From an uncultured Actinomycetes bacterium (GTDB lineage: Bacteria; Actinomycetota; Thermoleophilia; Gaiellales; JAICJC01): a stretch of DNA of 64,000 nucleotides. Positions 5,072-36,310 of the stretch are shown one piece after another. A program made the translations under genes and the position numbers. Within the stretch, counting starts at the first letter, position 1, and each line of letters opens with the position of its first letter. The stretch lies in the NCBI GenBank assembly GCA_963718315.1, contig CAVQZC010000003.1:151748-215747 (forward strand), given 5' to 3'. Under the pieces are notes generated by a model, which was not told the origin of the DNA, made no database searches, and saw only the letters and a program-made list of their open reading frames with translations.

Positions 5072-5550
5072 CACCGCAGCCATCTGCGTTCCTGGTGCCA
5101 GCGGTGGAGGGTGCGGGTGCTGGGTGGCCGGGCGGGGCAGTCGCGGTAGTGGGCGTGGATGTGTCTGGCTAGGGAGTCGGGGGCGGCGCCCTGGGCGAAG
5201 GCTTGCTCTGCGCGGCGGCGCAGGTCGGGCCAGGCGTAGCTGCCCGGCTTCTGTCTTGGTTTCTTCGCGGCCTGGCGGGCGGCGGCGAACGCTTTCAGCG
5301 CTTTTTGTCGGGCGAGTGTCCAGCAGCCGTGGGCTTGCCAGAGTCGCATCAGGGTGAGCTCGAAGTCTCTGCCGTTTCGTTGGCGTTGGAACTGGGGGCT
5401 GGCGTGGTCTTTGCAGAGCCAGATCTCGACGCCGTAGCCGAGGATCAGTTTCTGGGTTCTGCCTCTGGTGCGTTCGACGCAGATGCAGCAGGCGATCTGC
5501 TTGGTCGGGAAGTCGCGGGCTTTGTAGAGGGTGGGGAGGTAGCTGCTCAT
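5068..5550 (-). CDS. Hypothetical protein, Cys/His-rich N-terminus
   Basis: 160-aa ORF with non-GC-artefact composition and a CCIC...CKDH cluster. I recognise no family. Its 3' end overlaps the MFS gene end by 4 nt. Confidence 0.5.
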   Translation of the reverse strand: MSSYLPTLYKARDFPTKQIACCICVERTRGRTQKLILGYGVEIWLCKDHASPQFQRQRNGRDFELTLMRLWQAHGCWTLARQKALKAFAAARQAAKKPRQKPGSYAWPDLRRRAEQAFAQGAAPDSLARHIHAHYRDCPARPPSTRTLHRWHQERRWLRC

Positions 5551-5883
5551 GCGGGCAGTCCACCACTGCTTGCCGTCAGGTGTCTACACCGCGAGATGTG
5601 ACGGGAAGCTCAGGAAATACGAATGGCAGAGCCGGCATTCGCCAAGTGGTTGTCCCCGCGCGTTTACCCAAGACCGACTGGAACCGCCGGGGGAAGCCCC
5701 GAACCAGGCCGAACCGCCTGCCCAACCTCGACCTCGCGGCCGAACCCGCAGTCGGCGTGGACGACGCCGCCCTTTCAAGGGGGGCGGCGACGTCCACCTC
5801 ACCCCACGCCGCGCCTCCGGGGCGAGCATGAACGGAGGTCTCGCCGAGCCCAGCCGCACATCCGGCGTCAGCCAGCCCGGTCC

Positions 5884-5934
5884 AGAAAACGACTGGGGCC
5901 GGCCGCGTGCTCCCCGTTGCGCGCAGCCGGCCCC
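5884..5934 (-). terminator. Candidate intrinsic terminator downstream of the PHP gene
   Basis: 9-bp GC stem GGGGCCGGC (5895-5903) / GCCGGCCCC (5926-5934). On the minus strand it is followed by AGUCGUUUUCU. Confidence 0.45.
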
Positions 5935-5977
5935 GAGTGCCGCCCTTGCTCCCGGCCGGGCGGCGCGTGCCCCCTCC

Positions 5978-6709
5978 TCAGGCCACCGCCTGAGCCTCGC
6001 GTTCGGGCATGGGGACCCTCGTGACGAACGCCGGCTGATCGGAGCGCAGGTACTCCACCACCGCCTGTTCGCGGTGCGTGCAGGGGAGTAGCGTCTTCCA
6101 GGTCGCCAGGTGTTCGGTGCGGTGAAAATCGCCGGACGCGATCCCGGGCAGGCCCTCGGCCGCGACCCAGGAGAACACGTCCCACCGGTTGATCAGCTCG
6201 TAGCGGTCGACCAGCGTGCGCATCCGGCCGGGCGTGCGCCAGAACCGGCGCGTTGTCCGAAACGGCACCGGATCGCCGTTCGTGTCGTCGTGCGGGTGCG
6301 CCGCAATCACCGCGGCGCCCAGCGCGCGCGCCTCGCGCATCGCCGCCTCCGGGCCGTCGTCCATCGACACCCACGAGTCGAGGCCGACCGCCAGCACGTG
6401 GGCGGCCAGGTCGGGATCGGCGTCGTTGAACGTCAGCTCCAGCCCCGGAACCAGCACCAGATCGTATGTTTGCAGCGCACGCTCGCCCTGCGCTCGCAGC
6501 TCCTCCAGATACCGCGGGTGGCTCGCGGCCGACAGCGGCAGGCGCCATCCATCGGTCTCGGGCACGGCATGGTCGGTGACGCAGAGGACGTCGAAGCCGG
6601 CTCCGCCGTAGAGGTCGACCAGCTGCCCGATCGACAGGTCACCGTCCGACCAGGTCGAGTGGGCGTGAAGCTCGCAGAGCAGGGGTCGGAGCGCTCGTGC
6701 CGTTTCCAT
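5978..6709 (-). CDS. PHP (polymerase/histidinol phosphatase) domain metal-dependent phosphoesterase
   Basis: Start taken at internal ATG 6709 (METARALRPLLCELHAHSTWSDG, the PHP HxH motif), with CVTDH and IAAHPH following. The upstream part of the 370-aa ORF is Arg-rich non-coding-like sequence. Confidence 0.75.
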   Translation of the reverse strand: METARALRPLLCELHAHSTWSDGDLSIGQLVDLYGGAGFDVLCVTDHAVPETDGWRLPLSAASHPRYLEELRAQGERALQTYDLVLVPGLELTFNDADPDLAAHVLAVGLDSWVSMDDGPEAAMREARALGAAVIAAHPHDDTNGDPVPFRTTRRFWRTPGRMRTLVDRYELINRWDVFSWVAAEGLPGIASGDFHRTEHLATWKTLLPCTHREQAVVEYLRSDQPAFVTRVPMPEREAQAVA

Positions 6710-6874
6710 GGCTGAAGTGTCGCGGCGGTGCAGCCTGCTGTGGGCCTCCAACCGGTGCCTGATCGGTAAAGATCCGGCGACTGTCGCAATGGATACTTTC
6801 GCGCTAGGCTGCGACGGTACTACCGACCTGACCACGCGGAGTTTCGGCTGCCAAAGCTCGGCCCTGTTCTCGCG

Positions 6875-7600
6875 GTGGGGATCGTCGCGGCACTCGCCGT
6901 GCCCGCGACGGCCACCGCCTCTATGTCTGCGACGCCAAGCCTGCCGCTGCATGTGCTGGGGGCGACAGGCCAGACCGTGGGCGTGCCCTCGACGAACTGG
7001 GCCGGATACGCGGCGCGGGGGCCGTGGCATGCGTTCAGGACCGTCGCCGCCCGCTGGGTGCAGCCGCGAGCGTTCTGCGGTCCGCTGCACACCTACTCGG
7101 CGTTCTGGGTCGGCCTCGACGGATTCGGGTCAGGGACGGTGGAGCAGGTCGGAACCAGCGTCGACTGTTCGAGCGGCAGGCCGGTCTCCTACGCCTGGTA
7201 CGAGATGTACCCGCAGCTTCCGCACTTCCTGCCGGTCCCGGTCTGGGCCGGCAACCACATCGCCGCCAGCGTCACCCACACGCGCAACGGGCGGTTCGCA
7301 CTCTTCCTGCGCAACCTGAGCACCGGCCGCCACGCGCTCGTCATGCAGGACATGCCCTACGCCCGGCTGGCTTCCGCCGAGGTGATCGCCGAAGCGCCGT
7401 TGGCGGGCTCGCGCCGCTCGGTGCTGCCCCTGGCCAACTTCCGCCAGGTGAGCTTCACCAACGCAATCGCCAACGGCCGCGTGATGTCGGCCTTCCACCC
7501 GGTGCGGCTGATGATGATGGCCAGCCGGTCGGTGGTCAAGGCGCGAACGTCGGACATGCTCCGCGGCACCGGCTTCTCGGTGACCTGGCACCACCGTTAG
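6875..7600 (+). CDS. Peptidase G1 (eqolisin / scytalidoglutamic peptidase, Pfam A4-like) family, secreted
   Basis: Motifs NWAGY, FWVGLDG, TVEQVGTS (catalytic Gln context), YAWYEMYP and SAEVIAEAP (catalytic Glu context). The true start may be CTG at 6848, which has a GGAG 7 nt upstream (see findings). Confidence 0.75.
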   Translation: MGIVAALAVPATATASMSATPSLPLHVLGATGQTVGVPSTNWAGYAARGPWHAFRTVAARWVQPRAFCGPLHTYSAFWVGLDGFGSGTVEQVGTSVDCSSGRPVSYAWYEMYPQLPHFLPVPVWAGNHIAASVTHTRNGRFALFLRNLSTGRHALVMQDMPYARLASAEVIAEAPLAGSRRSVLPLANFRQVSFTNAIANGRVMSAFHPVRLMMMASRSVVKARTSDMLRGTGFSVTWHHR

Positions 7601-7663
7601 CCGCCTGCCCACCGAACGGGTAGGCTAGTGCCTCACCATAGACCTGACTTGGGGGGCTTTGTC

Positions 7664-8413
7664 GTGCAGAAGCTTTGCTCAGTTCTGGTGGTGGGGCTCG
7701 TGGCAGCGTTTGCGCTGCCCGCCACCGCCTCCGCCCATACGATCGCGGCGCACTCCGGCCCGCTGCACCTGTCGGCGCGCCTGGGGCGAACCTGCGACGT
7801 CGTCGAACTGGTCCGGCTACGCCGCCCACGGCGTCAACGGAACAGCTTCACGAACGTTTCGGCGAACTGGGTCGAGCCGACCGGCACGTGCACCGCCAGG
7901 CGACGACCTACTCGTCGTTCTGGGTCGGCCTCGATGGGCTAACGACGGAACCGTCGAGCAGACCGGCACCAGCGTCGACTGCGCGGGCGGCGTCGCCGAT
8001 CTACTACGCCTGGTACGAGATGTTCCCGAAGTTCCCGAAGAACCTGCCGCTGACGATCAGCCCCGGTGACCACATCATCGGCGAGCGTGACGACCGACAG
8101 CCACGGCAGCTTCACGCTGACGCTCAGCGACACCACCACCGGCCAGCAGCTCACGACCATCGTCAAGACGCTGACCAGCGGCAAAGCTGAAGTCGGCCGA
8201 GGTGATCGCCGAGGCGCCCTCGTCCGGCACGGCGGTGCTCCCGCTGACCAACTTCGGGAAGGTCAACTTCTCGAACGCCAGGTGAACGGCGCCAGCATCG
8301 GCCGCGCGAGCTCCGAGAAGATCACGATGGTGCAGAGCAACGGAAACCCGAAGGCCACCCCGTCGGCGATCACGGGCGGCAACGCGTTCTCGGTGACCTG
8401 GAACCACAAATAG
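7664..8413 (+). pseudogene. Second peptidase G1 paralogue, broken by about 8 frame changes
   Basis: Signal peptide VQKLCSVLVVGLVAAFALPATASA. The family motifs SNWSGY, FWVGLDG, TVEQTGTSVDC, YYAWYEMFP, SAEVIAEAP and FSVTWNHK are found alternately in all three + frames. Junctions near 7785, 7843, 7897, 7937, 7991, 8081, 8175 and 8279. Confidence 0.7.
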
Positions 8414-8429
8414 GCGCAGCTTCTCGCGG

Positions 8430-9399
8430 CTAGACATCGGTGATGCGTGGGTCGAGGTACGCGTAGGCCACGTCGACCACTGCGTTGACGACCACGACGA
8501 AGAACGCCCCGTACAGCGTCAGCGCCATCAGGGGCGGGAGGTCGAGGTGGGCGACCGATTCCTGGGCGTACTGGCCCACGCCCTCGAGTCCGAAGATCGG
8601 CTCGATCAGGATCACCGTGCCGCCGACCGCGGCCGCGAAGTCGAGCCCGAACAGCGTCACGACCGGGATCAGGCAGTTGCGCAGCGTGTGCCGGGTCAGC
8701 ACCCGCCACTCCGACAGGCCCTTGGCGCGGGCGGTGCGGACGTAGTCCAGTGAGCGGGTGTCGATCAGCGAGCTGCGAACGACGCGTGCGTAGAACCCGA
8801 TCGAGACGACCGCAAGGACGATCCAGGGAAGGAACAGGTGGGTCGCCCACCCGGCTGGGTCGCTCGACAGCGGAACGTATCCGCCGGGCGGGATCCAGCT
8901 GAACAGCGGGAACGTGCGGTACTTGTAGGTCAGCAGGTACAGCAGCACGGCGCCCAGCCAGAAGATGGGTATCGAGACGCCCACCAGCGCCAGCACCGTC
9001 AGCACCCGGTCGAGGAACCGGCCCTGGTGGATCGCGCTCATCACACCGATGGTGACGCCGAAGACCAGCCACAGGATCGCCGCGCCGATCGCCAGCGACA
9101 GCGTCCTCGGCGCCCCGGCGATGATCGTCGGTATCACCTGCGTCTGATCCTGGTAGGAGATCAGGTCGCGCTTGACGAACAGCCGGTCCATCATCTTCAC
9201 GTACTGGATGGAGAGCGGCTGGTTGAACCCCCAGTCCTTGTTGATCTGGCGCGATGTTCTGCTGAGTCGGGTGGCGGCCCGCCATGCGCAGCGCCGGGTT
9301 GCCGCCGGGGATCACGTTGAAGATGAAGAACACGATCACCGAGATCGCGAACATGACGACCACCAGGCCGACCAGCCGGCGGGCGATGAAGCGGCCCAT
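8430..9399 (-). pseudogene. ABC peptide/opine-type permease (DppB/OppB-like), one frameshift near 9236
   Basis: N-terminus MGRFIARRLVGLVVVMFAISVIVFFIFNVIPGG is in one frame. The rest (QINKDWGFNQPLSIQYVKMMDRLF...DYVRTARAKGLSEWRV) is in another. The start overlaps the dppC-like stop by 1 nt. Confidence 0.8.
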
Positions 9400-10360
9400 C
9401 AGCGCAGCCTCGCGTGCGGGTCGAGAGCGTCGCGGAGGGCGTCGCCGAGCACGTTCAGCGACACGACGGTGAGGATGATGGCGATGCCCGGCGCGATCGT
9501 CAGCGCCGGCGCGGTGTAGATCTGCGCGCTGCCCTGTTCGATGATGTTGCCCCAGGACGGGGTCAGGATCGGGACGCCGACACCGAGGAACGACAGCGCC
9601 GCCTCGGTCAGGATGTTGTTGGCCACGATCAGCGTCAGCAACACCAGTGCCATCGTTGCTACGTTGGGCAACAGGTCGGAGACCATGATCCGCAGGGAGC
9701 TCGCGCCCATTGCCTCGGCCGCCTCGACGAACTCGCTCTGGCGCAGGGTCAGCACCTGGCCGCGGATGGGCCGCGCCACGTAGGGGATGTAGACGACGGC
9801 GATCACCAGGATCGGGATCGCCAGCGACTGATGACGAGACGTGGATCGGGCCCATGGCGATGCCTCCGACCGCGAACGACGTCGCCAGGGCCACCGCCAG
9901 CAGGTAGACCGGGAAGCGCCCAGATCAGGTCGAGGCCGCGGGAGATCACCGCATCGGCCGCACCCCGCCGGTAGCCGGCGATCAACGCCAGGATCAGGGC
10001 GACGCCGACGCACAGCACGGCGGACGCGAACCCTACGAACAGCGAGATCCGGCCGCCGTACAGCAGACGGACGAACAGGTCACGCCCGTTGGCGTCGGCG
10101 CCCAGCAGGTACGGGCCGCGCAGGCCGGGCCCGATCGGCGTGCCGTCGAGGGCGACGACCGGGATCTTCTTGCCGCCCTCGTGGACATAGCCGTTGATGT
10201 TCTGGTCGTTGGGCCCGTGGTGGGCGACGTAGTTCGCCCACAGCGTGGCGCCCGGGAAGCAGGCGAACACCAGCAGCGCCAGGCCGATGGCCGACACCAT
10301 GGCGGCGCGGTTCCGGCGCAGTCTGCGCCAGGCCAGCGACCAGCCTCCGCGTTGCTCCAT
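9399..10360 (-). pseudogene. ABC peptide/opine-type permease (DppC/OppC-like), two frameshifts near 9915 and 9840
   Basis: Three pieces in three frames: MEQRGGWSLAWRRL...GLDLIWA; FPVYLLAVALATSFAVGGIAMGPIH; SLAIPILVIAVVYIPYVARPIRGQVLTLRQSEFVEAAEAMG. Confidence 0.8.
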
Positions 10361-10363
10361 GGG

Positions 10364-12008
10364 CTACTTCGTGAGGTACATCGAGGGGAACAGCTCGAAG
10401 TAGTTGCCGTTGAAGACCAGGCCCTGCAGGTGCGGCGACACGAACTTCGGCCACTGCCGGTTCATGAACGGCGCCCACGGGGCGACGTTCTTCATGTACA
10501 GGGCGTCGAGCTTCGCCCAGATGGCATCGCGCTTCGGGCCCAGCGGCATCTCTCGCGCCTGGTCGATCATCTTGTTGTAGGCGGGGATGTTCGTGTTGGA
10601 CGTGTTGTTGTTGCCGACGCTGGTGATCTTCTCGCCGTTGAGCAGGACGTCGATGAAGTCCTGGCCCTCGGGGAAGTCCTGGTTCCAGTCGTTGAACGCG
10701 ATCTGCGGGATCGCCCTTCTGGGTGGCGATCGTGTCCCAGTAGACCGACTCGTCCTCGGTCTTCACGCTGGCGTGGAGGCCGATCGAGTTGAGCACGCCC
10801 GGCCATGTACTGCACCGCCTGCGGGGTGGGGTCGGTGTTGTGGCCCCAGACCGTCACGTTGGCCCCCTCGACCCCGGCCTGCTGGATCATCTGCTTCGCC
10901 TTGGCCAGGTTGTAGGGGTAGAAGTTGTGCGCCACGTAGGCCGGTGCGAAGCCGGGCGGCAGGATGTTCTCCGACGGGGTGCCCTGGCCACCGAAGATCT
11001 TCACCAGCGCGCGCCGGTCGATCGCGTAGTTGACCGCCTCGCGCACCGCCAGCTTGTTGAACGGGTACTTCCTCGAATTCATCGTGAAGTACGTGATGTT
11101 GTTGCGGGTGAACAGGTGCACCTGGCTCGGGTACTGCGCCTTGAGCTGGGTCAGGCGGTCGGGCGGCACCGACTCGAAGTACCAGTCCAGCTGGCCGTCG
11201 GCGACCTCGGTCACCGACTGTTCGGGCGTCACGCCGATGGAGACGTCGATCTCGTTCAGGTGCCCGTTCGGCGTGTCCGGTGTCCACGACTTGAAGTTCG
11301 GGTTGCGGGTGATCACGATCTGCTGCTTGGGCGTGTACTTGGAGATCATGTAGGGGCCGGTCGCGACCCTCCACTGTGAGATCGTCGAGACGTCCTTCTC
11401 CGGCGTGCCCTTCGGCATCACGAAGGCAAACGGGATCGCCATGTAGTCGAGGAACGTGCCGTCGGGCTGCGTCAGGTGGAACGTCAGGGTCATCGTCTTG
11501 TCGTCGGCGACGATGCCGGAGATGCCGCCCTTGCGGGTCTGCGCGTACTGCTGAGCGCCGGCGATGCCGGTGTAGAAGCCGACGCCGCCGGAGTCGACCT
11601 GGAACAGGCGCTCGATCGAGTACTTGAAGTCGGACGGCTTGACCTCGCGGCTGACCGGCGGCGAGAACATCACGCCGGAGCGCAGGTGGAAGGTGTAGGT
11701 GAGGCCGTCGCTGCTGACCGTCGGCATCGCCTTGGCGATGTCGGGAACGACCTGTGCGCCGGCTCCGCCGGCCGCCTTCTTGTAGGTCAGCAGGCCGTTG
11801 TTGGTCGCCTCGAGGATCTCCCAGCCCTCGTTGGTGTAGGAGAGGGCGGGGTCGAGATGGTCGGGGTTGTCGGGGATGCCGGCGCGCAGCGTCCCGCCGT
11901 TGACCGGCGTGCCACCGCCCGAGCCGCCGCCCGAGGTCGAGCTTGAGCTACCGCATCCGGCAGCGAACGCCAGGGCGGCGAGCAGCAGGAGCATCTGCCA
12001 GATCCGGG

Positions 12009-12012
<4 letters not shown>
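10364..12012 (-). pseudogene. ABC substrate-binding lipoprotein, family 5 (DppA/OppA-like), two frameshifts near 10798 and 10706
   Basis: Start MTRIWQMLLLLAALAFAAGCGSS (lipobox). SBP_bac_5-like body. The C-terminal 150 aa continue in two other frames (VLNSIGLHASVKTEDESVYWD; QIAFNDWNQDFPEGQDF...MYLTK). Confidence 0.8.
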
Positions 12013-13364
<1,352 letters not shown>

Positions 13365-13368
<4 letters not shown>

Positions 13369-14183
13369 TGCTCCTCCTCACGCCAGGCACCCAGGAAGGT
13401 GCACGTCTCGGCGGCCGCCGCTGCGCCCGCCGCCAACATCGCATCGTGGTCCGCGCCGTCGAGCCGGGCCGATATGGCCGCGGCGATGAACGCGTCTCCG
13501 GCGCCCAGCGTGTCGACCACCTCGACCGCGTCGGCGCCCCGCTCGGTCAGCGTACCGTCGTAGGCGAGGCTGCCGTCGGTGCCGCGGGTGACGACGGCCA
13601 TCCCGGCGCCGGCGTCGACCGCCGACTGCGCTCGGGCGATGGCCTCATCGCGGCTGATCCGCGCTCCGGACAGGAACGCCACGTCGAGCCGGGGGGCGAT
13701 CGCCAGCATCAGCTCCTGGTCGTGCGGGTGCGAGAAGTCGTGCGACACGCGCGGCCCGTGGAGGTCGAGCAGCCAGTGCGACCGCTCCCGCATCCCTGCC
13801 GCGTGCACCCAGGCGCACGTCTCCAGGATCCGCAGGTCTTCCGGGCCCGGCACGTAATGGTCGTTGGCGCCGTGGCGCTCCTCCAGGAAGACGCGCTCGC
13901 CGTCGGGCGTCAGCTCGACCAGCGTGATGCCGGTCGGCTCGCCGCCTGCGACCCGCACCCGCTCGGTCTCGACGCCCGTCTGCCGCAGCGCTTCGACCAC
14001 GGAGCGGCCGTCCTGATCGTCGCCGACGACGCCCATGTAGTGCACGTGGTGCCCGTGCCGGCGCAGGCCGACGGCGACGTTCAGGGCGTTGCCGCCGATC
14101 CGCTGTGCCTCGGTGGGCGCGACGTAGCGGTCGACGCAGTTGTCGCCGATCGACGCCAGCGGCGCACCATTCCTCAGGGCCAC
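13365..14183 (-). CDS. frlD: PfkB-family sugar kinase, fructoselysine 6-kinase (FrlD)-like
   Basis: GTG start at 14183 overlaps the frlB-like stop. SIGDNCVDRY and GGNALNVAV match the E. coli FrlD N-terminus; DTLGAGDAFIAA is the PfkB signature. Confidence 0.8.
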
Positions 14184-15232
14184 CTGGCGCCGTCCTGCGA
14201 GAGCACCTGCCGTCCCATGTAGACGCGGGCGTCGAGATCGTCGATGCCGCGGGCGAGGGTCGCGTGGACGATGAACCACTGCAGCGCGACCTTGAGCACG
14301 AACGGGGTCAGCAGCGGGTGGACGCCGGGGTGGTCGGCGGCGTCGAAGACGAAGGTGCGGGCGCCGTTGGCCTGCATGAACTCGAGCGTGCGCAGCGTCA
14401 TCGCGCGCGACTCGTCGGTGCCGAGCACGACGGCGACGTCGGGCCGCTGCCGCTCCAGCGCCTCGGCGGGCCCGTGGCGGAACTCGCCGCTCTCGATCAC
14501 CGAGCCGTTGATCCGCATGTTCTCCATGAACACGGTCAGCCCGAACTTGTAGGCAAGGCCGTAGAGCGGCCCTGCGCCGACGCAGTAGAGGAGGTCGGAG
14601 TCGCCCAGCCGCTCGGCCAGCTCGCGCCCCGGCTCGCGTGTCGACCGGAAGGCCTCGCCCACCTGTGCCGGCACCTCGGCCAGTCGCTCCATCAGCTCGG
14701 CTGCTTCCCGGTTGCCGTCCAGCCGGCCCCACTCCAGCGCGAGCAGGCTGACCGCCATCAGCGGCAGGCTGTAGAGCCCCGGCGAGTCGTAGGCGAACGT
14801 GTCGTCGGCCTCGCTGCCGATCGGCGAGTCGGCGTCGCGGACGAGCGCCACCGTGCGGGCGCCGCGCTCGCGCGCGAAGCGGAGCGCCGCCAGCGTGTCC
14901 TCGGTTGCGCCCGAGTAGGACGCGAGCACGACCAGTGACTCGGGGCCGAGCCGCCTGGGCGCACGCCAGATCAGGTCGTAGGAGAGGGCGACGTCGCTGG
15001 CTACCGGCGCGAACCTGTCGCACAGGTACTTGCCCGAGTACATGCTGGCCCATGACCCGCCGCTGCCGACGAAGTAGACCGACTGGGTGCCCCGGCTGCG
15101 GGCGTCGGCCGCCAGTGCGCGGACGGCGTCTGCCTGCTCCTGGAGGAAGCGTCCGAGGTCAGCCTCGAGGTGGGGCGAGCTGAAGAGCTCGGAGGTCTGC
15201 GCCTGGGCGATCAGCTGCTCGAGGTCCGGCAT
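14174..15232 (-). CDS. frlB: SIS-domain fructosamine-6-phosphate deglycase (FrlB)-like
   Basis: 352 aa. VYFVGSGGS (SIS). VIESGEFRHGPAE, GTDESR and HPLLTPF align to E. coli FrlB VIESGEFRHGPLE / GNDESR / HPWLAPF. Confidence 0.85.
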   Translation of the reverse strand: MPDLEQLIAQAQTSELFSSPHLEADLGRFLQEQADAVRALAADARSRGTQSVYFVGSGGSWASMYSGKYLCDRFAPVASDVALSYDLIWRAPRRLGPESLVVLASYSGATEDTLAALRFARERGARTVALVRDADSPIGSEADDTFAYDSPGLYSLPLMAVSLLALEWGRLDGNREAAELMERLAEVPAQVGEAFRSTREPGRELAERLGDSDLLYCVGAGPLYGLAYKFGLTVFMENMRINGSVIESGEFRHGPAEALERQRPDVAVVLGTDESRAMTLRTLEFMQANGARTFVFDAADHPGVHPLLTPFVLKVALQWFIVHATLARGIDDLDARVYMGRQVLSQDGARWP

Positions 15233-15256
15233 GTGATAACGCTATCATACCGCCTC
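15233..15256. promoter_or_regulatory. Divergent control region: cre-like LacI operator TGATAACGCTATCA plus two back-to-back leaderless-type -10 boxes
   Basis: Only 24 nt separate the frlB-like ATG (15232) from the lacI-family ATG (15257). Palindrome with central CG at 15234-15247. TAGCGT on the minus strand ends 6 nt before the frlB ATG. TATCAT on the plus strand ends 8 nt before the lacI ATG. Confidence 0.45.
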
Positions 15257-16255
15257 ATGACGGTCACGCTCAAGGACGTCGCTCGGGTTGCCGGCCTGTC
15301 GCAGGCCACCGCGGCGCGTGCGCTCGGCGGGTACGGGTACGCGAGCCCGGATGCGGTCGAGCGCGCTTCCGACGCCGCGCGCCGCCTTGGATACACGCCC
15401 AACGGCGTGGCCCGGGCACTGGTCTCCCGCGCCACCCGGACGGTGGGGCTGGTGGTCGGCGATATCGAGAACCCCTTCTTCGCCGCGGCCGCCCGCGGCC
15501 TGGCCGACGCGCTCGAGGGCGAGGGCCATACCGTGCTGCTGGCCAACTCCGACGAGCACCGGGCCGCGGAGCAGCGGGCGATCGAGGCCCTGCGCTCCCA
15601 CCAGGTCGACGGGCTGGTGCTCGCCTCGGTCGGCCGCGCCGACGACCTGAACGCGATCGCCGCCTCCTCGCCGCTCGTCCTCCTCGATCGCAGCATCCGC
15701 GGCGTCCGCGCCGACTCCGTCACCGTCGACAACCGCGCCGGCGCCCGCCGCGCGGTGGAGCACCTGGTCACTCTCGGCCACCGCCGGATCGGGATCGTGT
15801 CTGACCACCCCTCGATCGCCTCCTCGGCCGAACGCCTGGCCGGCTACCGGAGGGCGCTGAAGGATGCGGGGCTACCCGACGATCCAGGGCTGGTATCGAT
15901 CGGCGGCTCCACCCGCGAGGACGGCCATCGGGCTGCGCGTGCGCTGCTCGACCGCGCCGACCGGCCGACGGCGCTCTTCACGTCCAACAACTTCATGACC
16001 TACGGAGCGGTGCTGGCGCTCAGGGAGCTCGGCCTGTCGGTGCCGGGCGACGTCGCCCTGGTCGGGTTCGACGACCTCGACTGGACGGTCCTCGTCGACC
16101 CGCCGCTGACGGTCGTCAGCCAGCCCGTGGCCGAGCTGGGAGCGACCGCCGGGAGGCTGCTGCTCGCCCGGATCGGCGGCGACGAGTCCCCGCCGCGGCG
16201 GGTCCGGCTACCCGCCCATCTGATCGTCCGTGGCTCGTGCGGAGCGGTGCGGTGA
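15257..16255 (+). CDS. LacI-family transcriptional regulator
   Basis: Start MTVTLKDVARVAGLSQATAARALGG (HTH_LacI), followed by a periplasmic-binding-fold sugar-binding domain. Confidence 0.9.
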   Translation: MTVTLKDVARVAGLSQATAARALGGYGYASPDAVERASDAARRLGYTPNGVARALVSRATRTVGLVVGDIENPFFAAAARGLADALEGEGHTVLLANSDEHRAAEQRAIEALRSHQVDGLVLASVGRADDLNAIAASSPLVLLDRSIRGVRADSVTVDNRAGARRAVEHLVTLGHRRIGIVSDHPSIASSAERLAGYRRALKDAGLPDDPGLVSIGGSTREDGHRAARALLDRADRPTALFTSNNFMTYGAVLALRELGLSVPGDVALVGFDDLDWTVLVDPPLTVVSQPVAELGATAGRLLLARIGGDESPPRRVRLPAHLIVRGSCGAVR

Positions 16256-17385
16256 GCGAGCTCGTCGAGCTGCTGTCGGAGCTGGTCGCGGTCGACTCGA
16301 CCAACCCTGACCTGGTGGCGGGAGGTGCCGGCGAGGCCGAGATCGGCCGCCTGCTGGCCGCCCGGCTGGCGGCCGCGGGGTTGGAGGTGGACTGCTGGGA
16401 TGTCGCTCCCGGCCGCCCGAACGTGGTCGGCCGGCTTGCCGGCACCGGCGGTGGGCGCTCGCTGATGCTGTTCGGGCACATGGACGTGGTGGGAGCCGAC
16501 CCCGGCCAGTTCACGCCCCAGCTGCGGGACGGTCGGCTGCACGGCCGCGGCGCCGTGGACATGAAGGGGGGCATCGCAGCCTGCGTCGCCGCGCTGGAGC
16601 GACTGGCGGCCGGTGCCCCGCTCGCCGGAGACGTCCTGGCGGCCTTCGTCAGCGATGAGGAGTGGGGCAGCGTGGGCGCCGAGGCGCTGGTCGGCCGCCA
16701 CCGGGCCGACGCGTCGGTGCTCGCCGAACCGTCGAACCTCGAGATCGTCGACGCGCACGGCGGCTTTGCCTGGTTCGACATCACCAGCACGGGCGTCGAT
16801 GCCGCCGGCTGGGAGGCCGAGATCGGCGTCGATGCCATCTCCCTCCTGGCTCCTGTGCTGAGCGGCATCGGGGAGCTCGACGCCGCGCTCGCTGGGGCGG
16901 CCACCGAACGCTGGGGGCGGCCGTCGGTGCACGCCTCGACCATCCGCGGAGGCCACACCTACCCGGCTTACCCCGGCACCTGTCAGCTGTCGGTCGAGCG
17001 GTGCCTGGTGCCGGGCGAGTCGGTGGCGCACTCGCAGTTCGAGATCGAGGAGCTGCTGCGCCGCGCTCGCAGCGCCGACGCCAGGTTCCAGGGTTCCTAC
17101 CGCACTGTCATCGCGCGCGAGCCGATGGTGCTTGCGGAGGGTGAGCCGGTGGTGGCCGAGCTGGCCGCCGTCGCAGAGCAGGTGCTGGGCCGCTCGGTAC
17201 CCCGGCGCTGCGACATCGGCTGGGGCGACTCCGGGCTGCTGGTCGAGGCCGGCGTCCCTTGCGTGACCTTCGGGCCGATCGGCGGCGGCGAGCACACGGC
17301 CGACGAGTGGGTCGACCTCGAATCTGTGGAGCGCTGCGCCGAGATCTACGAGCTGGTCGCCCGGTCGTTCTGTAGCGGCCGGTAG
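16252..17385 (+). CDS. M20 family metallopeptidase / deacylase (ArgE/DapE-like)
   Basis: GTG at 16252 (GTGA overlap with the lacI stop, GGAG 7 nt upstream); an alternative in-frame GTG lies at 16237. Motifs LFGHMDVVG, GRGAVDMKGG and SDEEWGS. Confidence 0.85.
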   Translation: MSELVELLSELVAVDSTNPDLVAGGAGEAEIGRLLAARLAAAGLEVDCWDVAPGRPNVVGRLAGTGGGRSLMLFGHMDVVGADPGQFTPQLRDGRLHGRGAVDMKGGIAACVAALERLAAGAPLAGDVLAAFVSDEEWGSVGAEALVGRHRADASVLAEPSNLEIVDAHGGFAWFDITSTGVDAAGWEAEIGVDAISLLAPVLSGIGELDAALAGAATERWGRPSVHASTIRGGHTYPAYPGTCQLSVERCLVPGESVAHSQFEIEELLRRARSADARFQGSYRTVIAREPMVLAEGEPVVAELAAVAEQVLGRSVPRRCDIGWGDSGLLVEAGVPCVTFGPIGGGEHTADEWVDLESVERCAEIYELVARSFCSGR

Positions 17386-17398
17386 CATCGCGCCCACG

Positions 17399-19916
17399 AT
17401 GCCGAGGGATCCACGCCACGACATCCTGTTCGAGCCGGTGCAGATCGGCCCCAAGACGCTGCGCAACCGCTTCTACCAGGTGCCTCACTGCACCGGCTTC
17501 GGGGTCGAGAAGCCGTGGTCGCAGTCACGGCACCGGGCGGTCAAGGCCGAGGGCGGCTGGGCAGCGGTCTGTACCGAGTACTGCGCCGTCAACGCCGAGT
17601 CGGACGAGACGCCGTACGTCGCGGCACGGCTGTGGGACGACCACGACGTGCGCATGCTCTCGGTGATGTGCGACGAGGCGCACGCCGAGGGGTCGCTGGC
17701 GGGGATCGAGCTCGGCCATACCGGCGTGCAGGCCGAGAACTCCGAGTCGCGGCTGGCGTCGGTCGGCCCGTCGCAGCTCGCCAGCGACTTTGCGACCGGG
17801 GTCGTGCCCAAGGAGATGACGAGGTCCGACCTGCGAAGGCTGGTCGACGACTGGGCGCTGGCGGCCCGCCGCTCACGTGACGCTGGGTTCGACATCGTCT
17901 ACGCCTACGGCGGCCACACCTACCTACTTGGTCAGTTCCTCTCGCCCCACTACAACCGCCGCACCGACGCCTACGGCGGGTCGCTGGCCAACCGGGCGCG
18001 GATCTGGCTGGAGGTGCTGGAGGCGATCCGCGACGCCGTCGGCGACGAGTGCGCGATCGCCTGCCGGGTCGCCGTCGACCGACTCGGCGCGCTGGGGGTC
18101 GACCTCGACGAGGGCCTCGAGTTCGTCCGCCTGGCCGACCACCTGGTCGACCTGTGGGACGTCAACGTCGGCTCCATCGGCGAGTGGGCGAAGGACTCCG
18201 GGCCGTCACGGTTCTTCGACGAGGGCTGGCAGTTCGAGAGCACGAAGCGCGTCCGCGAGGCGACCGCCAAGCCGATCGTCGGCGTCGCCCGGCTGACCGA
18301 TCCCGACCTGATGGCCTCGATCATCCGCACCGGGCTGTGGGACCTGATCGGAGCCGCTCGCCCCTCGATCGCCGACCCGTTCCTGCCCACCAAGATCGAC
18401 GAGGGCCGGCTGGACGAGATCCGCGAGTGCATCGGCTGCAACGTCTGCATCTCGAAGGCGGACAGCCGCCGTCACCTGGGCTGTACCCAGAACCCGACTG
18501 CGGGCGAGGAGTACCGGCGTGGGTGGCATCCCGAGCGGTTCCACCCGGTGAAGGATCCCGACCTGGACGCACTGGTCGTCGGCGGCGGCCCGGCCGGGAT
18601 GGAGTGCGCGATCGTGCTTGCCAAGCGCGGCGTGCGCCGTGTTCGGCTGGTGGAGCGGGCGACCGCTGCTCGGCGGCCACCTGGGGCTGGTCACGCGCCT
18701 GCCGGGGCTGGGCGAGTGGGGGCGGGTGGTCGCCCACCGGATGGTGCAGCTGCGCCGGCTGCCCGCGGTCGAGCTGGTCACGGACACCGAGCTGGACGAG
18801 GCGGCGATCCGCGCCGACGGGGCGGACGTGGTGGTGGTCGCGACCGGCGCCCACTGGGCGCGCGACGGCCTGAACGGGTTCACGCGCGGGCCGATCCCCG
18901 GGGCCGACGCCGACCTACCCTGGGTGCTGACGCCCGAGCAGGTGGTGCTCGAGGGCAAGCGGCCGCCGGGCGGGCGGGTCGTGGTCTTCGACGGCGAGGG
19001 CTACTTCACCGCCAGCGCGGTGGCCGAGCTGCTGGCCGCGGAGGGCGCGCAGGTCGAGTTCGTGACCGGCTACGAGACCGTCGCGCCGTTCTGCGCCGAG
19101 ACGCTGGAGGACGCGCTGGTCAAGCAGCGGCTCCATGAGCTGGGCGTCGGCATCCGCCGCGGGGTGAGCGTCACGGCGATCCGCGAGGGCGTGATCGAGT
19201 GCGAGGACGAGTTCGGCGACGCATTCGAGCTGGCCTGCGACGGCATCGTGCTGGCCACTCAGCGGGTGTCGCGCGATGGGCTCTTCCACGCGCTGGAGGG
19301 CTCCCGCGAGCGGCTCTACCGGATCGGCGACTGCGTCGCCCCGCGCCTGATCGCAGAGGCGGTGTTCGACGGCCACCGGCTGGCCCGCGAGATCGACGCC
19401 GCGGATCCGGAGGTGGCGCTGCCGTACCTGCGCGAGCGCCCGATGATGGAGACGCCCGCTGCGGCCGACTATGGCGCTCCGGCGGCGTTGGCGGGCCGGC
19501 CGGATCCCCAGCCCAGATCGGTGCGGATGCTCGACCCGGCCGCTGCGGCGGAGATTGCGGCGCTGCTCCGGGACGCGGACAGCGACGTCGTCATCTGCGC
19601 CGGTCGCGGCGCCGACCTGACCGCGGTCCGCAACCTCGCGGGCCGGTACGGCGCCCGGCTGGCGGTGTCACGTCCGCACGTGGAGGCGGGACGCGCGACC
19701 CGCGCCGAGCTGGTCGGAGCCTCCTCCGAGACGGTCGCGCCTCGCGTGTACCTGGCGCTGGGCGTCTCCGGCGCTCTGCCCCACCTGATCGGGATGCACG
19801 GAAGCGGCACCGTGGTCGCGGTGAACCGCGATCCCGACGCGCGGATCTTCGACTACGCCGACGTCGGTGTGGTGGGCGACTCGGCCGGGCTGGTCGAGGC
19901 GCTCGCGGCACTCTGA
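17399..19916 (+). pseudogene. Trimethylamine/histamine-dehydrogenase-family FMN/4Fe-4S flavoprotein fused to an ETF-alpha FAD-binding domain; one frameshift near 18660
   Basis: YQVPHCTG; ECIGCNVCISK...GCTQNPTAGEEYRRGWHPE; VVGGGPAGMECA; LPGLGEW. The last ~150 aa are in the same frame with no stop: VICAGRG, SRPHVEAG, APRVYLALGVSGALPHLIGM, VVAVNRDPDARIF. The two halves are ORFs 17399-19138 and 18618-19916. Confidence 0.8.
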
Positions 19917-21073
19917 CGGAGGATCTCGCCGGCGGCGCGGACGCCGCTTCGCAGGGCGCCCTCCATGGTGGCGAACCAGACGCCCTCGGTGTGCTCGCCG
20001 GCGAAGGCCAGCGCTCCCACTGGCTCGGCACGGAGACGAGCGTCGGCCGCGGACGCGCCGGTCGAGTAGGCGCCTTCCGGCCAGGTGGAGAGCACCTCGC
20101 CGTCTGCCAGTTCGAGCTCGGGCCGCAATGCCGCCACACGGGCCCGGTAGGTGGCCGCCCCGCGGTCGACCTGCAGCGCCTCCACGGCGGGCGCCGAGCC
20201 TGCAAACGCACTGACGACGGGCGCCACCGGGCCTCCGTCGCGCGCCGTCCACGTCCAGAAGCGCTCGGGCACGCTGAGCACGGAGCTGGGCTCGGGGACG
20301 GCCTGCAACGGGACGAACAGCTTGGCGGCGTCGCCGTAGACCACGCGGGCCAGCGTCTCGCGTTTCCAGTCAGGCAACGGCGGATCGAACTCGATCGCCT
20401 CCGTTGCCTTCGCCGGCACCGCCACCACGCACGCGTCGACCGCGAGCGAGCCGTCGATCCGGACGGCCGCGGCCGTGTGCTCGACGCGCCTGACGGGCGT
20501 CGACAGGTGCACCCGATCGCCGAGCTCCTCGGCGAGCCGATCGGCAATCCGCTGGTTTCCGCCGGCCACCCGCCGCGCCTCGGTGTCGGCGAACAGCTCG
20601 CCGAGCTCGCGGACGGCGGTCGCCGACAGGCGGTCGGTCGGATGCGCGTAGCTGACCGCGATCCGGCAGGCAATCAGCTCGCGGGCGCCTGCGGGGATTG
20701 GCAGGCGCGCCAGCAGCTGGTCGACCGTCAGGCCGTCTCCCTGCCCGGACTCGACGGCCGCTGCGACCGCCGTTGTGGCGGCGTCGAGCTCCTCGGGGGT
20801 CGTCCCGATGCCGCCGCGTGGCTCCCGGCGCGTGAAGCTCATGCCCATCGGCTCCAGCTCGAGGCCGAGCCGCGCCGCCATCTCCGGCACCGCTGTGTAT
20901 CCCGCCGTGACGAACTCGGCACCCATCTCGATCCGGGCGCCGTTCGGGGCATGGGACGTCCAGACCCGGCCGCCGACGCGGTCGCGGGCGTCCAGCACGG
21001 TCACATCCGCGCCGCCACGCGCCAGCGCATCCGCCGCCGCCAGCCCTGCAAACCCCGCCCCGATCACGCACAC
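19853..21073 (-). CDS. Flavin-containing amine oxidase (MAO/putrescine-oxidase family)
   Basis: VCVIGAGFAGLAAADAL...VLDARDRVGGR dinucleotide fold; C-terminal FAGEHT...GALRSG. The start is uncertain (GTG 21073 chosen). The 3' end overlaps the convergent gene by 64 nt. Confidence 0.75.
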   Translation of the reverse strand: MCVIGAGFAGLAAADALARGGADVTVLDARDRVGGRVWTSHAPNGARIEMGAEFVTAGYTAVPEMAARLGLELEPMGMSFTRREPRGGIGTTPEELDAATTAVAAAVESGQGDGLTVDQLLARLPIPAGARELIACRIAVSYAHPTDRLSATAVRELGELFADTEARRVAGGNQRIADRLAEELGDRVHLSTPVRRVEHTAAAVRIDGSLAVDACVVAVPAKATEAIEFDPPLPDWKRETLARVVYGDAAKLFVPLQAVPEPSSVLSVPERFWTWTARDGGPVAPVVSAFAGSAPAVEALQVDRGAATYRARVAALRPELELADGEVLSTWPEGAYSTGASAADARLRAEPVGALAFAGEHTEGVWFATMEGALRSGVRAAGEILRQSAASASTSPAESPTTPTSA

Positions 21074-21098
21074 ACGCGCACGGCGGTCAGTATTCCAC

Positions 21099-21995
21099 TC
21101 AGCCGACCTCGATCTCGAACGCCGCTCGGTGCTCCTCGCCGGCCTCCAGGATGTGCAGGCCATCGCCGGTGGCCAGCGCATTGGTCGGCGCCGTCATCGG
21201 CTCGTAGCAGACCACCTCGGGGTCGGGCGGGGCCCAGACCTGCGCGAACCGGTAGCCCTCCAGCCAGCGGACGGTGAGGCGAAGCCCGCCGCCGGCCAGC
21301 ACGAACTCCGCGCCGTCCGGGATGTCGGCGTAGCCGTCGTCGTAGGTCCTGCCGGCCAGCGGCCCGGACGGGATCGGCGCCTGCTCCAGCTCTCCCGTCG
21401 GCAAGGCGAGGTGGTCGGTGGCGATGTGGGTGGTCACGGGCGCGTCGATCTCCCAGTCGTCGCGTGGGACGTCAGGGAGGTGGAGGTAGGGGTGGTAGCC
21501 GAAGCTGACCGGAACCGCCCCCTCATCGTGTGCGCGCACGGTGGTTTCGATGCGCAGCGCCGAGTCGGTGAGGGTAGCGGTCACCGTGACCGTGTGGCGG
21601 AAAGGGAAGCACGCCGAGAGCGCCGGGCTGTGGTCGCTTAGGAGCTCCGCCCGCAACCAGCCCAGCGAGGCTTCCTTCACCTCGAACGGCAGCTCAGCGG
21701 GGATCACCCCGTGGATGGGAGTGCCGTTCCCGTCGGCTTTCTGCATGGGGCTGGAGGCGTCTGCGACCACGTCACGACCGGCGACCCTGTGGACGCCTGA
21801 CGCCAGCCGGTTGGCCCACGGATAGAGCAGCGGGATGCCCATCGTCGAGCCGCCGGCGTAGCCGTCGAGGCCGCCCCGCAACACGAGCAGCTCCCGGTTC
21901 CGATGCTTCAGGGAGCACCCCACCATCGCCAGCTGGGGAGCGAAGGTTGCCTCCAGCTCTCGGGACGGGGAGACCACCTTGCGCAGCTCCGTCAT
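21099..21995 (-). CDS. Aldose 1-epimerase (galactose mutarotase-like) family protein
   Basis: 298 aa. LLYPWANRL, PIHG, FGYHPYL and YEPMTAP motifs. Confidence 0.85.
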   Translation of the reverse strand: MTELRKVVSPSRELEATFAPQLAMVGCSLKHRNRELLVLRGGLDGYAGGSTMGIPLLYPWANRLASGVHRVAGRDVVADASSPMQKADGNGTPIHGVIPAELPFEVKEASLGWLRAELLSDHSPALSACFPFRHTVTVTATLTDSALRIETTVRAHDEGAVPVSFGYHPYLHLPDVPRDDWEIDAPVTTHIATDHLALPTGELEQAPIPSGPLAGRTYDDGYADIPDGAEFVLAGGGLRLTVRWLEGYRFAQVWAPPDPEVVCYEPMTAPTNALATGDGLHILEAGEEHRAAFEIEVG

Positions 21996-21999
21996 CTGT

Positions 22000-23064
22000 T
22001 CACTCCCGCTTCGTTTGGTTGCTCTGGCGCATGGCCCGGCTCTGGGTGCGCCAGCGCCGGCGTTCGTCGGCCTGCGCGCGGGCGTCCTGCTTGAGGGCCT
22101 GGTGCCTCAGCTCGCGCTCGAGTTTGCGGTAGCTTGCCAGCCGCTCGGCGGGCAGCGTCCCGGCGCGGATCGCTTCCCTTACAGCGCACCCCGGTTCCTG
22201 TTCGTGCGTGCAGTCACGGAACTTGCAGTCGCCGGCGAGCTGCTCGACGTCTGCGAACGTCTGCGCCAGCCCGTCGCCGTCGTTCCACAGCGACACCGAC
22301 CGCATGCCCGGCGTGTCGATCACCAGCGCCCCACTGGGCAGCAGGATCAGCTCCCGGTGCGTGGTCGTGTGGCGGCCACGGCCGTCACGGTCGCGGATCT
22401 CGCTGACCTTCTGCAGGTCCTCGCCGGCCAGGGCGTTCACCAGGGTCGACTTGCCGGCTCCGGACATACCCAGCAGGGCGGCGGTGGTGCCCGGCTGGAG
22501 GTGGGCCTGGAGCAGCTCCATTCCCGCGCCGGTAGGGGCGCTGATCGCGATCACGGGGACGCCGAATGTCACCGACTCCACCTCGGCCACGATCGGCGCC
22601 AGATCATCGGACAGGTCGGCCTTGGTCAGGACGACGATCGGCGCGGCGCCGCTCTGCCACGCCAGCGTCAGGTAGCGCTCGATCCGCCGTAGGCTGATTC
22701 GCTGGTCGACGCCGTTCAGCACCAGCACGGCGTCCATGTTGGCGGCGACCACCTGCTGAATGGTCTCGTCGCCCGCCGCGCCCCGGATGAACTGGGTGCG
22801 ACGCGGCAAGACCTCGCGGATGACTACGCCGTCCTGGTCGCTGCCCAGCTCGATCGCGACCCAGTCGCCGACCACTGCCTGCGCTTCGCCGTGTGTCGCG
22901 AGCGCCCGCACCGGGCCCTCGGCGGTCAGTACGGTGCAGGCGCCGCGGTCGACCCGGGCGACCCGCCCGCAGAGCAGGCCGCGCGCGGCGTAGGCCGCGA
23001 CGTCCTGTTCCATGTCCTCGCGCAGGCCTAGTGCCGCCAGCGCCGAGGTATCTGCTTCCTTCAC
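22000..23064 (-). CDS. rsgA: Ribosome small-subunit-dependent GTPase A
   Basis: GTG 23064 with GGAG upstream. VLTKADL, GMSGAGKSTLVNAL, GRHTTT and the C-terminal zinc knuckle CKFRDCTHEQEPGCAV. Confidence 0.88.
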   Translation of the reverse strand: MKEADTSALAALGLREDMEQDVAAYAARGLLCGRVARVDRGACTVLTAEGPVRALATHGEAQAVVGDWVAIELGSDQDGVVIREVLPRRTQFIRGAAGDETIQQVVAANMDAVLVLNGVDQRISLRRIERYLTLAWQSGAAPIVVLTKADLSDDLAPIVAEVESVTFGVPVIAISAPTGAGMELLQAHLQPGTTAALLGMSGAGKSTLVNALAGEDLQKVSEIRDRDGRGRHTTTHRELILLPSGALVIDTPGMRSVSLWNDGDGLAQTFADVEQLAGDCKFRDCTHEQEPGCAVREAIRAGTLPAERLASYRKLERELRHQALKQDARAQADERRRWRTQSRAMRQSNQTKRE

Positions 23065-36219: not shown

Positions 36220-36310
36220 CCTTGCTCCTTCCCTAGGACTGCAGACAACCGGGCTATACCGGTGATGGCGCGACTATACGGCTTGCACCTGCGCATGTCG
36301 ACGGCAGGAC

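Follow-up and report, generated by a model that had tools for sequence, protein, structure and literature searches.

A conserved FrlB/FrlD-type locus with a class-III aminotransferase, an M20 hydrolase and a predicted LacI operator in uncultured Thermoleophilia

We describe a divergent gene cluster that encodes a putative SIS-family deglycase and a PfkB-family kinase of the FrlB/FrlD type in a 64,000-nucleotide (nt) stretch of contig CAVQZC010000003.1, here called the window, from an uncultured Gaiellales bacterium (class Thermoleophilia). The real unit is most likely an eight-gene locus under the control of a LacI-family repressor, in which the lacI and M20 metallohydrolase genes face a SIS-PfkB-aminotransferase-SBP5-DppC-DppB operon (SBP5, family-5 solute-binding protein) across a 24-nt spacer. 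Its gene content makes it fairly probable that the locus provides for the LacI-repressed import of an Amadori compound and its cleavage by kinase and deglycase.

The G+C content of the window is about 70%, which makes raw lists of open reading frames (ORFs) unreliable and fills them with spurious entries; because the ORF list was swamped in this way, coding frames were assigned from third-position GC and a codon-usage Viterbi segmentation. Family labels were taken from Pfam and NCBIfam profile searches, and structural relatives from matches in the Protein Data Bank (PDB). The searches bear out the gene families, the gene order and the divergent lacI gene that an earlier note had read from the letters of the DNA alone. 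Its six-gene operon stands as far as families and order are concerned, but in the sequence as it stands the reading frames of four of the six are interrupted, and the lengths of these four in the following list of core genes are those after frame correction.

8430..9399, minus strand: DppB-like permease gene (BPD_transp_1; 322 aa corrected)
9399..10360, minus strand: DppC-like permease gene (OppC_N and BPD_transp_1 in different frames; 319 aa corrected)
10364..12012, minus strand: family-5 solute-binding lipoprotein gene (SBP_bac_5; 548 aa corrected)
12009..13368, minus strand: HemL-like class-III aminotransferase gene (Aminotran_3 in two frames; 452 aa corrected)
13365..14183, minus strand: FrlD-like PfkB kinase gene (Pfam PfkB; 272 aa, intact, GTG start)
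14174..15232, minus strand: FrlB-like SIS deglycase gene (Pfam SIS; 352 aa, intact, first gene of the operon)
15257..16255, plus strand: LacI-family repressor gene (LacI and Peripla_BP_1/3/4; 332 aa), divergent from the operon
16252..17385, plus strand: M20 (ArgE/DapE-type) metallohydrolase gene (Peptidase_M20 118.8 and M20_dimer 34.7, above cutoffs)

Results

A conserved eight-gene core

The genes of the operon are tightly packed, with a 10-nt overlap at the SIS/PfkB junction, overlaps of 4 nt (ATGA) at both the PfkB/aminotransferase and the aminotransferase/SBP junctions, a 3-nt gap between SBP and DppC, and a 1-nt overlap between DppC and DppB. The earlier description of all six genes as joined by overlaps of 1-4 nt therefore needs amending at the first and fourth of these junctions. 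On the plus strand, the GTG start of the M20 gene overlaps the lacI stop codon (GTGA), and alignment with relatives sets the true start of lacI at the ATG at 15257.

The conservation set was built by scanning one genome per species and then adding further contigs (loci are labelled L with a number). The species scan returned ten loci from Gaiellales or “uncultured Actinomycetes,” with SIS identities of 68-73%, and the further contigs, one of them labelled Solirubrobacteraceae by NCBI, widened this range to 60-63%. We find the core in about 15 Thermoleophilia loci, from both Gaiellales and Solirubrobacterales and down to about 60% SIS identity. One arm of it consists of the M20 and LacI genes, the other of genes for SIS, PfkB, the aminotransferase, SBP5 (in one or two copies), DppC, and DppB. 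Gene overlaps of 1-10 nt are shared by the related loci, the SIS and PfkB genes are adjacent in all of them, and an M20 gene, 54-65% identical, is present in every one that has a LacI gene. The unusual partners of the FrlB/FrlD pair suspected from the window, the class-III aminotransferase and the M20 enzyme, are accordingly co-conserved with SIS, PfkB, LacI, and the Dpp-type importer across this set. An exact-sequence look-up of the window SIS protein gave no match. The locus is widespread in uncultured soil Thermoleophilia, and its metagenome homologues number hundreds to thousands.

Four contigs need a word of their own: L014, the nearest relative, 87% identical to the window and with the same flanks; L027, a short-read Logan contig with 91.9% nucleotide identity to the window over 4,337 nt; L007, a short-read relative whose intact proteins guided frame repair; and L008, a short contig that stops after the PfkB gene. 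Genes for the DppD/DppF ATPases occur in most relatives, after DppB or after M20, and in neither the window nor L014; a search of the window for DppD/DppF genes and a second SBP gave only a weak match to an unrelated ABC protein (41974-42639).

Both core enzymes are FrlB/FrlD-like

The FrlB and FrlD models lead other families by about twofold, and the best model scores of both proteins, by a wide margin, uphold the earlier assignment of the core as FrlB/FrlD-type. In NCBIfam, the SIS protein scores 161 bits against FrlB (NF008481), its best model, compared with 80 for GlmS, 62 for NagB-II, and 35 for PGI (phosphoglucose isomerase), and its PDB matches are led by B. subtilis FrlB (3EUA, 6.5e-37) and Salmonella FraB (3.9e-27), ahead of GlmS (8.5e-14) and NagB-II (8e-11). 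The PfkB protein matches FrlD (NF007321) with 174 bits over its full length (4-261 of 261), the next model being IolC with 95 bits. The SIS protein also keeps a catalytic pair 16 residues apart, E237 (in FMENM) and H253 (in RHGP); the invariant catalytic residues of Salmonella FraB are E214 and, in the HGP loop, H230 (PMC12359202), to which they correspond.

L020 holds a SIS homologue with 60% identity, clustered with genes for a GntR regulator, an epimerase resembling FrlC (138 bits), and a kinase resembling FrlD; a gene for an amino-acid permease is close by. As judged from its gene content, this cluster has the canonical frl layout.

A predicted operator shared by the 15 Thermoleophilia loci with a LacI gene

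The SIS and lacI start codons are 24 nt apart, and the palindrome that had been noticed between them lies exactly at 15234-15247, overlapped by a promoter-like site.

15234..15247, no strand assigned: predicted LacI-family operator TGATAGCGTTATCA, which fits the LacI/cre consensus TGWNANCGNTNWCA; sole match in the window
15244..15273, minus strand: promoter-like site, a consensus match only, with -35 TTGAGC, an 18-nt spacer, and -10 TATGAT

The exact motif TGATAGCGTT(A/C)TCA occurs in all 15 Thermoleophilia loci with a LacI gene, and in each of them it stands between lacI and SIS. This spacer contains two copies in L022 and L023, L023 has a third (17053-17066) before its displaced SBP5 gene, and these loci contain no other copy. 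Such conservation of a spacer motif constitutes strong phylogenetic footprinting for the predicted operator. Repeat finding did not list it; its arms are only 5 nt. The promoter-like site is the sole sigma-70-like site in 7600-22100 (14.5 kb), and its -10 element (15249-15244) overlaps the operator. In the window, 9 nt separate the operator from the lacI start codon; in L001-L010 and L014 this interval is 9-10 nt.

The regulator has the makeup of a LacI repressor, with an N-terminal helix-turn-helix, a periplasmic-binding-protein fold, and a central-CG palindrome near the putative promoter, and is 40% identical to the LacI proteins of the FrlB/FrlD loci on pTiChry5 and a Rhizobium plasmid. As the operator reaches into both the -10 element and the start region of the operon promoter, and the lacI start codon is 9 nt away, we infer that the LacI protein would bind this single operator, TGATAGCGTTATCA, and repress transcription in both directions until a sugar-containing effector appears. 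In both the window and L014, a single nucleotide lies between the operator and the SIS start codon. A leader of about 40 nt with a GAAAGG Shine-Dalgarno sequence, present in L001-L010 (~9958-10000), is missing from both (15233-15256 in the window), and for this reason the SIS mRNA may be leaderless.

The aminotransferase, the M20 enzyme, and the solute-binding protein

The aminotransferase scores 373 bits against NF000818, a model of the glutamate-1-semialdehyde (GSA) aminomutase subfamily (cutoff 398), and 348 bits against TIGR00713 (cutoff 527), reaching neither cutoff; GntE is the third-best NCBIfam model, with 347 bits. Its relatives act on aldehydes or non-alpha amines. Because the scores stay below the family cutoffs and the gene is always embedded within this operon, not in a haem cluster, a housekeeping HemL was rejected, and the “HemL” names that databases give to this aminotransferase (thousands of entries) are probably wrong. 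The M20 protein scores 183.5 bits against TIGR01910 (cutoff 217.6); a housekeeping DapE was likewise rejected, the gene being translationally coupled to lacI and its product below the family cutoff.

An aminotransferase beside FrlB/FrlD outside Thermoleophilia was not found among 72,556 plasmids. The best plasmid matches, from Roseomonas, Aureimonas, and Azospirillum, belong to an unrelated cluster. They share 46-50% identity with the window aminotransferase, against 38-40% for true HemL, and by these comparisons the plasmid homologues are a distinct non-HemL clade that is widely annotated as HemL. On the Roseomonas and Aureimonas megaplasmids (L025 and L026), the homologue lies beside GNAT, alpha/beta-hydrolase, HAD phosphatase, and EamA genes, and these clusters are near a sigma-54-dependent regulator and a sensor kinase.

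The closest structure to the SBP is 8UPI, an L-amino-acid-amide binder (4e-63). The SBP keeps the Trp410/Asp413 pair that holds the charged amine of the ligand, whereas the amide-specific insertion and Trp34 are not kept; these residues fit a small, amine-bearing ligand.

In the Solirubrobacteraceae locus, a metagenome-assembled genome (MAG) so labelled by NCBI (L018), the M20 gene overlaps lysA by 4 nt (4731-7129), and a gene for a GntG-type aldolase dependent on pyridoxal phosphate (PLP) ends the operon (18944-19993). The lysA product is a bona fide diaminopimelate decarboxylase (TIGR01048, 377 bits; cutoff 298). These lysA and GntG neighbours offer at most a hint of a diamino-acid or aldehyde-forming amine moiety.

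Proposed function and its alternatives

In the pathway that we favour, the lipoprotein SBP, with its Trp/Asp pair, and DppC/DppB would import a 1-deoxyfructosyl amino acid or a short glycated peptide, using ATPases that are presumably encoded elsewhere in this lineage. The FrlD-like kinase would phosphorylate the sugar at C6, and the FrlB-like deglycase would then hydrolyse the fructosamine 6-phosphate to glucose 6-phosphate and a free amine, steps suggested by family and gene context. The M20 hydrolase would remove an acyl or peptidyl group, adapting the pathway to the amine part, and the HemL-like PLP enzyme would transaminate a primary amine or aldehyde of the released moiety.

Several observations weigh against this pathway. 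The scores of the SIS protein and the kinase do not reach the FrlB equivalog cutoff of 430 bits and the FrlD cutoff of 247 bits, respectively; identity to enterobacterial FrlB (the frlB products of a Pantoea plasmid and of an E. coli entry in PLSDB) is only about 31%; and the Glu/His pair, found also in GlmS-type and NagB-II-type enzymes, does not tell deglycases apart from these. The ATPase genes, searched for as DppD/F, are absent from the window. We know of no role for a HemL-like PLP enzyme in any Amadori pathway, since the amine of the Amadori bond is a secondary one, on which enzymes of the PLP type are unable to act. Finally, the closest homologue of the SIS protein outside Thermoleophilia, with 46% identity, lies beside a true NagA in a Kosmotogaceae locus (L011).

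The earlier note had drawn a wider island. Taken as one functional unit of 11 genes, it would have M20 deacylate the amine after deglycation, a fusion of trimethylamine dehydrogenase (TMADH) and electron-transfer flavoprotein (ETF) oxidise that amine together with an amine oxidase, and an epimerase act on the sugar. The three additional genes are as follows:

17399..19916, plus strand: TMADH-like protein with an ETF_alpha C-terminal domain (Pfam ETF_alpha, PDB TMADH)
19853..21073, minus strand: flavin amine-oxidase-family gene (Pfam Amino_oxidase, 164 bits); neighbour, outside the core
21099..21995, minus strand: aldose 1-epimerase-family gene (Pfam Aldose_epim); neighbour, outside the core

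The domains of M20 and of the TMADH-ETF fusion were found on the plus strand downstream of lacI, as had been described. The fusion belongs to the TMADH family by full-length similarity to TMADH, a protein with an OYE (old yellow enzyme) barrel, a 4Fe-4S motif, and two nucleotide-binding domains (1DJN, 5.7e-210, residues 3-686; histamine dehydrogenase, 3e-161); the ETF_alpha domain is added at the C terminus. ETF is the natural electron acceptor of TMADH, and the protein would thus be an enzyme fused to a domain of its own redox partner. Because the TMADH-ETF gene starts 13 nt after M20 on the same strand, with no predicted terminator, it may be co-transcribed with lacI-M20 in this lineage. In favour of the island, L014 shares this spacing, so that co-transcription under LacI control is probable in this lineage, and TMADH-family enzymes oxidise amines.

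The wider island nevertheless seems unlikely to us. None of the three genes adjoins the core in L001-L010, L018, L022, L023, or L024, where that flank is occupied by DppD/F, by another Dpp system, or by genes without relation to the locus; only L010 has a nearby homologue of the TMADH/OYE family, with 49% identity and on the other strand. Since only the window and L014 have TMADH-ETF, amine oxidase, and epimerase genes beside the core, the oxidoreductase flank is, on present comparisons, lineage-specific and outside the conserved core. Missing co-conservation of the flanking oxidoreductases was one of the outcomes that the earlier note had named as speaking against its reading, and for this part it is what the comparison shows. 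The amine oxidase and epimerase genes do converge on the plus-strand genes from the minus strand, as reported, but they form a tight unit with rsgA that has no operator, the epimerase gene lying 4 nt downstream of rsgA. For the amine oxidase, no NCBIfam model reaches its cutoff, the best being HpnE with 73 bits. The fate proposed for the amine, “deacylated and oxidised,” is conjecture.

The rsgA, epimerase, and amine oxidase genes, an odd mix, run head to tail on the minus strand (19853-23028) with gaps of 4 nt and about 25 nt. At the other end of the core, directly downstream of the operon and on the opposite strand, are two tandem peptidase A4 genes (eqolisin-type; 6875-7600 and 7664-8410), members of a mostly fungal family. 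In most relatives this place is taken by DppD/F or by an additional SBP5 gene. Compared with L014, the first copy has 77% amino-acid identity and the second about 40%.

We regard as quite unlikely an amino-sugar pathway in which the SIS protein is a NagB-II-like deaminase/isomerase of the glucosamine-6-phosphate type, the PfkB protein an amino-sugar kinase, and M20 an N-deacylase in place of NagA, while the Dpp-type system imports an amino-sugar conjugate and the HemL-like enzyme handles a second amino group or a C2/C1 amine shift. The Kosmotogaceae locus, the main reason for caution here, speaks for it, combining within 8911-12182 a LacI gene, the 46%-identical SIS gene (whose best model is still “FrlB”), and NagA (TIGR00221, 285 bits; cutoff 226); flanked by this bona fide NagA, the SIS protein of L011 is probably an amino-sugar deaminase. 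The window SIS protein, too, matches GlmS and NagB-II models, LacI regulators usually sense sugars, and the conserved Asp of the SBP would also suit a protonated amino sugar. Against this stand an FrlB score 2.6 times the NagB-II score, a kinase that is FrlD-like over its full length, and the closer SIS homologue (60% identity) in the frlC/B/D-type cluster of L020. Genes for NagA, a ROK kinase, or a glycosidase occur in none of the ~15 loci, and we know of no M20 enzyme that deacetylates sugars.

Frameshifts in the window are very probably assembly errors

Four operon genes and the TMADH-ETF gene each change frame mid-gene in the window, at seven single-base shifts, six of them in the operon, which the earlier note had missed.

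~12781-12786, minus strand: aminotransferase, one extra base
~10797-10800 and 10706-10710, minus strand: SBP, two extra bases
~9916 and 9827-9832, minus strand: DppC, two net +1 insertions
~9249-9252, minus strand: DppB, one extra base
~18662, plus strand: TMADH-ETF, one extra base

In alignments guided by L007, the gene pieces are colinear with exactly one base skipped between them; in the tblastn alignment of DppB, residues 1-49 fall in one frame and 50-318 in the adjacent one, again with a single base skipped. Removal of one base at each of the six operon sites gives proteins of 452, 548, 319, and 322 residues, the lengths found in L007. The corrected proteins are 94-96% identical to those of L014 over their full length (94% for the aminotransferase), and a 96%-identical SBP relative (P0241) is intact at 548 aa. 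All four operon genes are intact in L014, DppC is intact in both L014 and L027, and neither contig has the extra aminotransferase base. Length differences between L027 and the window fall at exactly the six operon sites and nowhere else, the window being net +1 at each. The ratio of nonsynonymous to synonymous substitution rates (dN/dS) against L014 is 0.07-0.11 for the corrected genes and 0.16-0.19 for the intact SIS and PfkB genes. Every shift detected in the window is in the +1 direction, and the inserted bases are mostly G or C beside CG or GC. Given relatives that lack the extra bases, full-length matches of 94-96%, and low dN/dS, the shifts are very probably insertion-type assembly errors, and the locus should be read as intact. 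Counting against this is their density, about 10 times higher in 8.4-12.8 kb than in the remaining window.

It is very unlikely that the shifts are real and that the transporter and aminotransferase genes are recent pseudogenes, perhaps following loss of the DppD/F ATPase genes: the six shifts do fall within 4.4 kb and hit exactly aminotransferase, SBP, DppC, and DppB while SIS, PfkB, LacI, and M20 are intact, and neither the window nor L014 has ATPases in cis, but all shifts are net +1 in the same direction, the genes show neither stop codons nor deletions nor damage of any other kind, their dN/dS is below that of the intact genes, unrelated window genes are split likewise, and L014, equally without ATPases, keeps the four genes intact, its own +1 insertions (about 25) lying in other genes. 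Programmed frameshifting was rejected, as the sites are not slippery runs and are not present in relatives.

Elsewhere in the window, GGDEF (24229-) and EAL (26273-26899) domains lie in different frames with a shift at ~26181, a second M20 gene is split at ~58169 (pieces 57143-58169 and 58008-58421), and the N terminus of an amino-acid permease (35626-36273) is cut off from the remainder of its gene; further candidate +1 sites are at ~27290, 31327, 35639/35735, and 52385. L014 has uncompensated single-base insertions of its own, about 25 in number, at ~4500-8400 (corresponding to window 17300-20800); they affect the genes for TMADH-ETF, M20, and the amine oxidase, and its gene calls there are fragments; the window is intact where L014 carries these insertions (TMADH-ETF/amine-oxidase region). 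As a practical warning, long-read MAGs of this group hold clustered single-base insertions that mimic pseudogenes.

Discussion

Comparison with known Amadori systems

The window locus shares with E. coli frlABCD-frlR and B. subtilis frlBONMD the adjacent, translationally coupled kinase and SIS deglycase genes, a dedicated importer, and a repressor, and its sister locus L020, from the same class, even has FrlC-like and GntR genes. It differs in having a LacI-type rather than a GntR repressor, a Dpp/Opp-type importer with a family-5 SBP rather than an APC permease or sugar-type ABC system, no FrlC (no AP_endonuc_2 gene), and an extra, conserved HemL-like aminotransferase and M20 enzyme. The hallmarks of the E. 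coli-type system (GntR-type FrlR, APC-type FrlA, and FrlC) are absent from the window and present in L020. In L023 (13199-17066), an SDR (short-chain dehydrogenase/reductase) gene and a sugar-type ABC importer of the SBP_bac_1 type are inserted between the aminotransferase and SBP5-DppCB genes; B. subtilis FrlONM is an ABC importer of the same SBP_bac_1 family (PMC12632257). This importer, the frl-like cluster of L020, and the pTiChry5 locus described next all speak for the FrlB/FrlD assignment.

That known loci use a GntR regulator and have no such partners, as the earlier note maintained, is too strong, since loci on Agrobacterium pTiChry5 and a Rhizobium plasmid use LacI. On the former, genes for LacI and a Dpp-type ABC system accompany those for SIS and a “fructoselysine 6-kinase,” with oxoprolinase genes alongside; on the latter, LacI, PfkB, and SIS lie beside ornithine cyclodeaminase. 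The Agrobacterium Amadori-opine loci (mocD/mocE of octopine/agropine Ti and Ri plasmids, and pTiChry5) have the same modular layout; mocDE release an amino acid and a sugar phosphate (PMC8087989). Like the window, pTiChry5 combines a LacI repressor (40% identical) and an FrlB-like SIS protein (33-35% identical) with an FrlD-like kinase, with a Dpp-type importer whose SBP is large, and with enzymes for the amino-acid part. In the Agrobacterium loci, however, the accessory enzymes are oxoprolinase A/B or MocC instead of M20 and a HemL-like aminotransferase, the ATPase is encoded in cis, and the genes are plasmid-borne in Rhizobiaceae and serve crown-gall opines, whereas the locus described here is chromosomal in free-living Thermoleophilia.

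The Salmonella fra system for fructose-asparagine (FraE asparaginase, FraD kinase, FraB deglycase) follows a similar scheme, in which a hydrolase trims the amino-acid part before kinase and deglycase act, and E214/H230 of FraB correspond to E237/H253 here; its regulator belongs to the GntR family and its transporter to the Dcu type, an asparaginase stands in the place of M20, and there is no aminotransferase. With GlmS-type isomerases and NagB-II deaminases, the SIS protein shares the two-SIS fold and the Glu/His pair, and there is the NagA-linked, 46%-identical homologue in Kosmotogaceae, but those models score 62-80 bits against 161 for FrlB, and the window has an FrlD-type kinase and no NagA. 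The literature yielded no description of frlB/frlD with an aminotransferase or an M20 enzyme. Because regulator and transporter differ from those of frl and fra, FrlC is lacking, and two extra enzymes are conserved, the locus, as far as its genes indicate, works like the Frl, Fra, and Moc pathways yet is the equivalog of none. In the pattern that emerges from the gene comparisons, the kinase/deglycase core stays constant while transporters, regulators, and amine-part enzymes are exchanged around it.

Implications

Amadori compounds are abundant in decaying biomass, and to our knowledge detailed accounts of their use by bacteria are limited to a few Proteobacteria and Firmicutes and to the opine systems of Agrobacterium. 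The uncultured actinobacteria that abound in soil (Gaiellales and Solirubrobacterales) have a conserved version that is built differently, although its core chemistry is familiar. The Kosmotogaceae locus also shows that automatic “FrlB-like” names may hide amino-sugar deaminases. The two extra enzymes and the well-defined predicted operator are concrete targets for biochemistry. We suggest, only tentatively and as a rather doubtful proposition, that the HemL-like PLP enzyme and the M20 enzyme are obligate partners of FrlB/FrlD across Thermoleophilia for a class of glycated compounds that has not yet been studied; one candidate is glycated diamino-acid peptides left in soil by the walls of dead bacterial cells. 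If this is true, the reaction of the aminotransferase would be new to Amadori metabolism.

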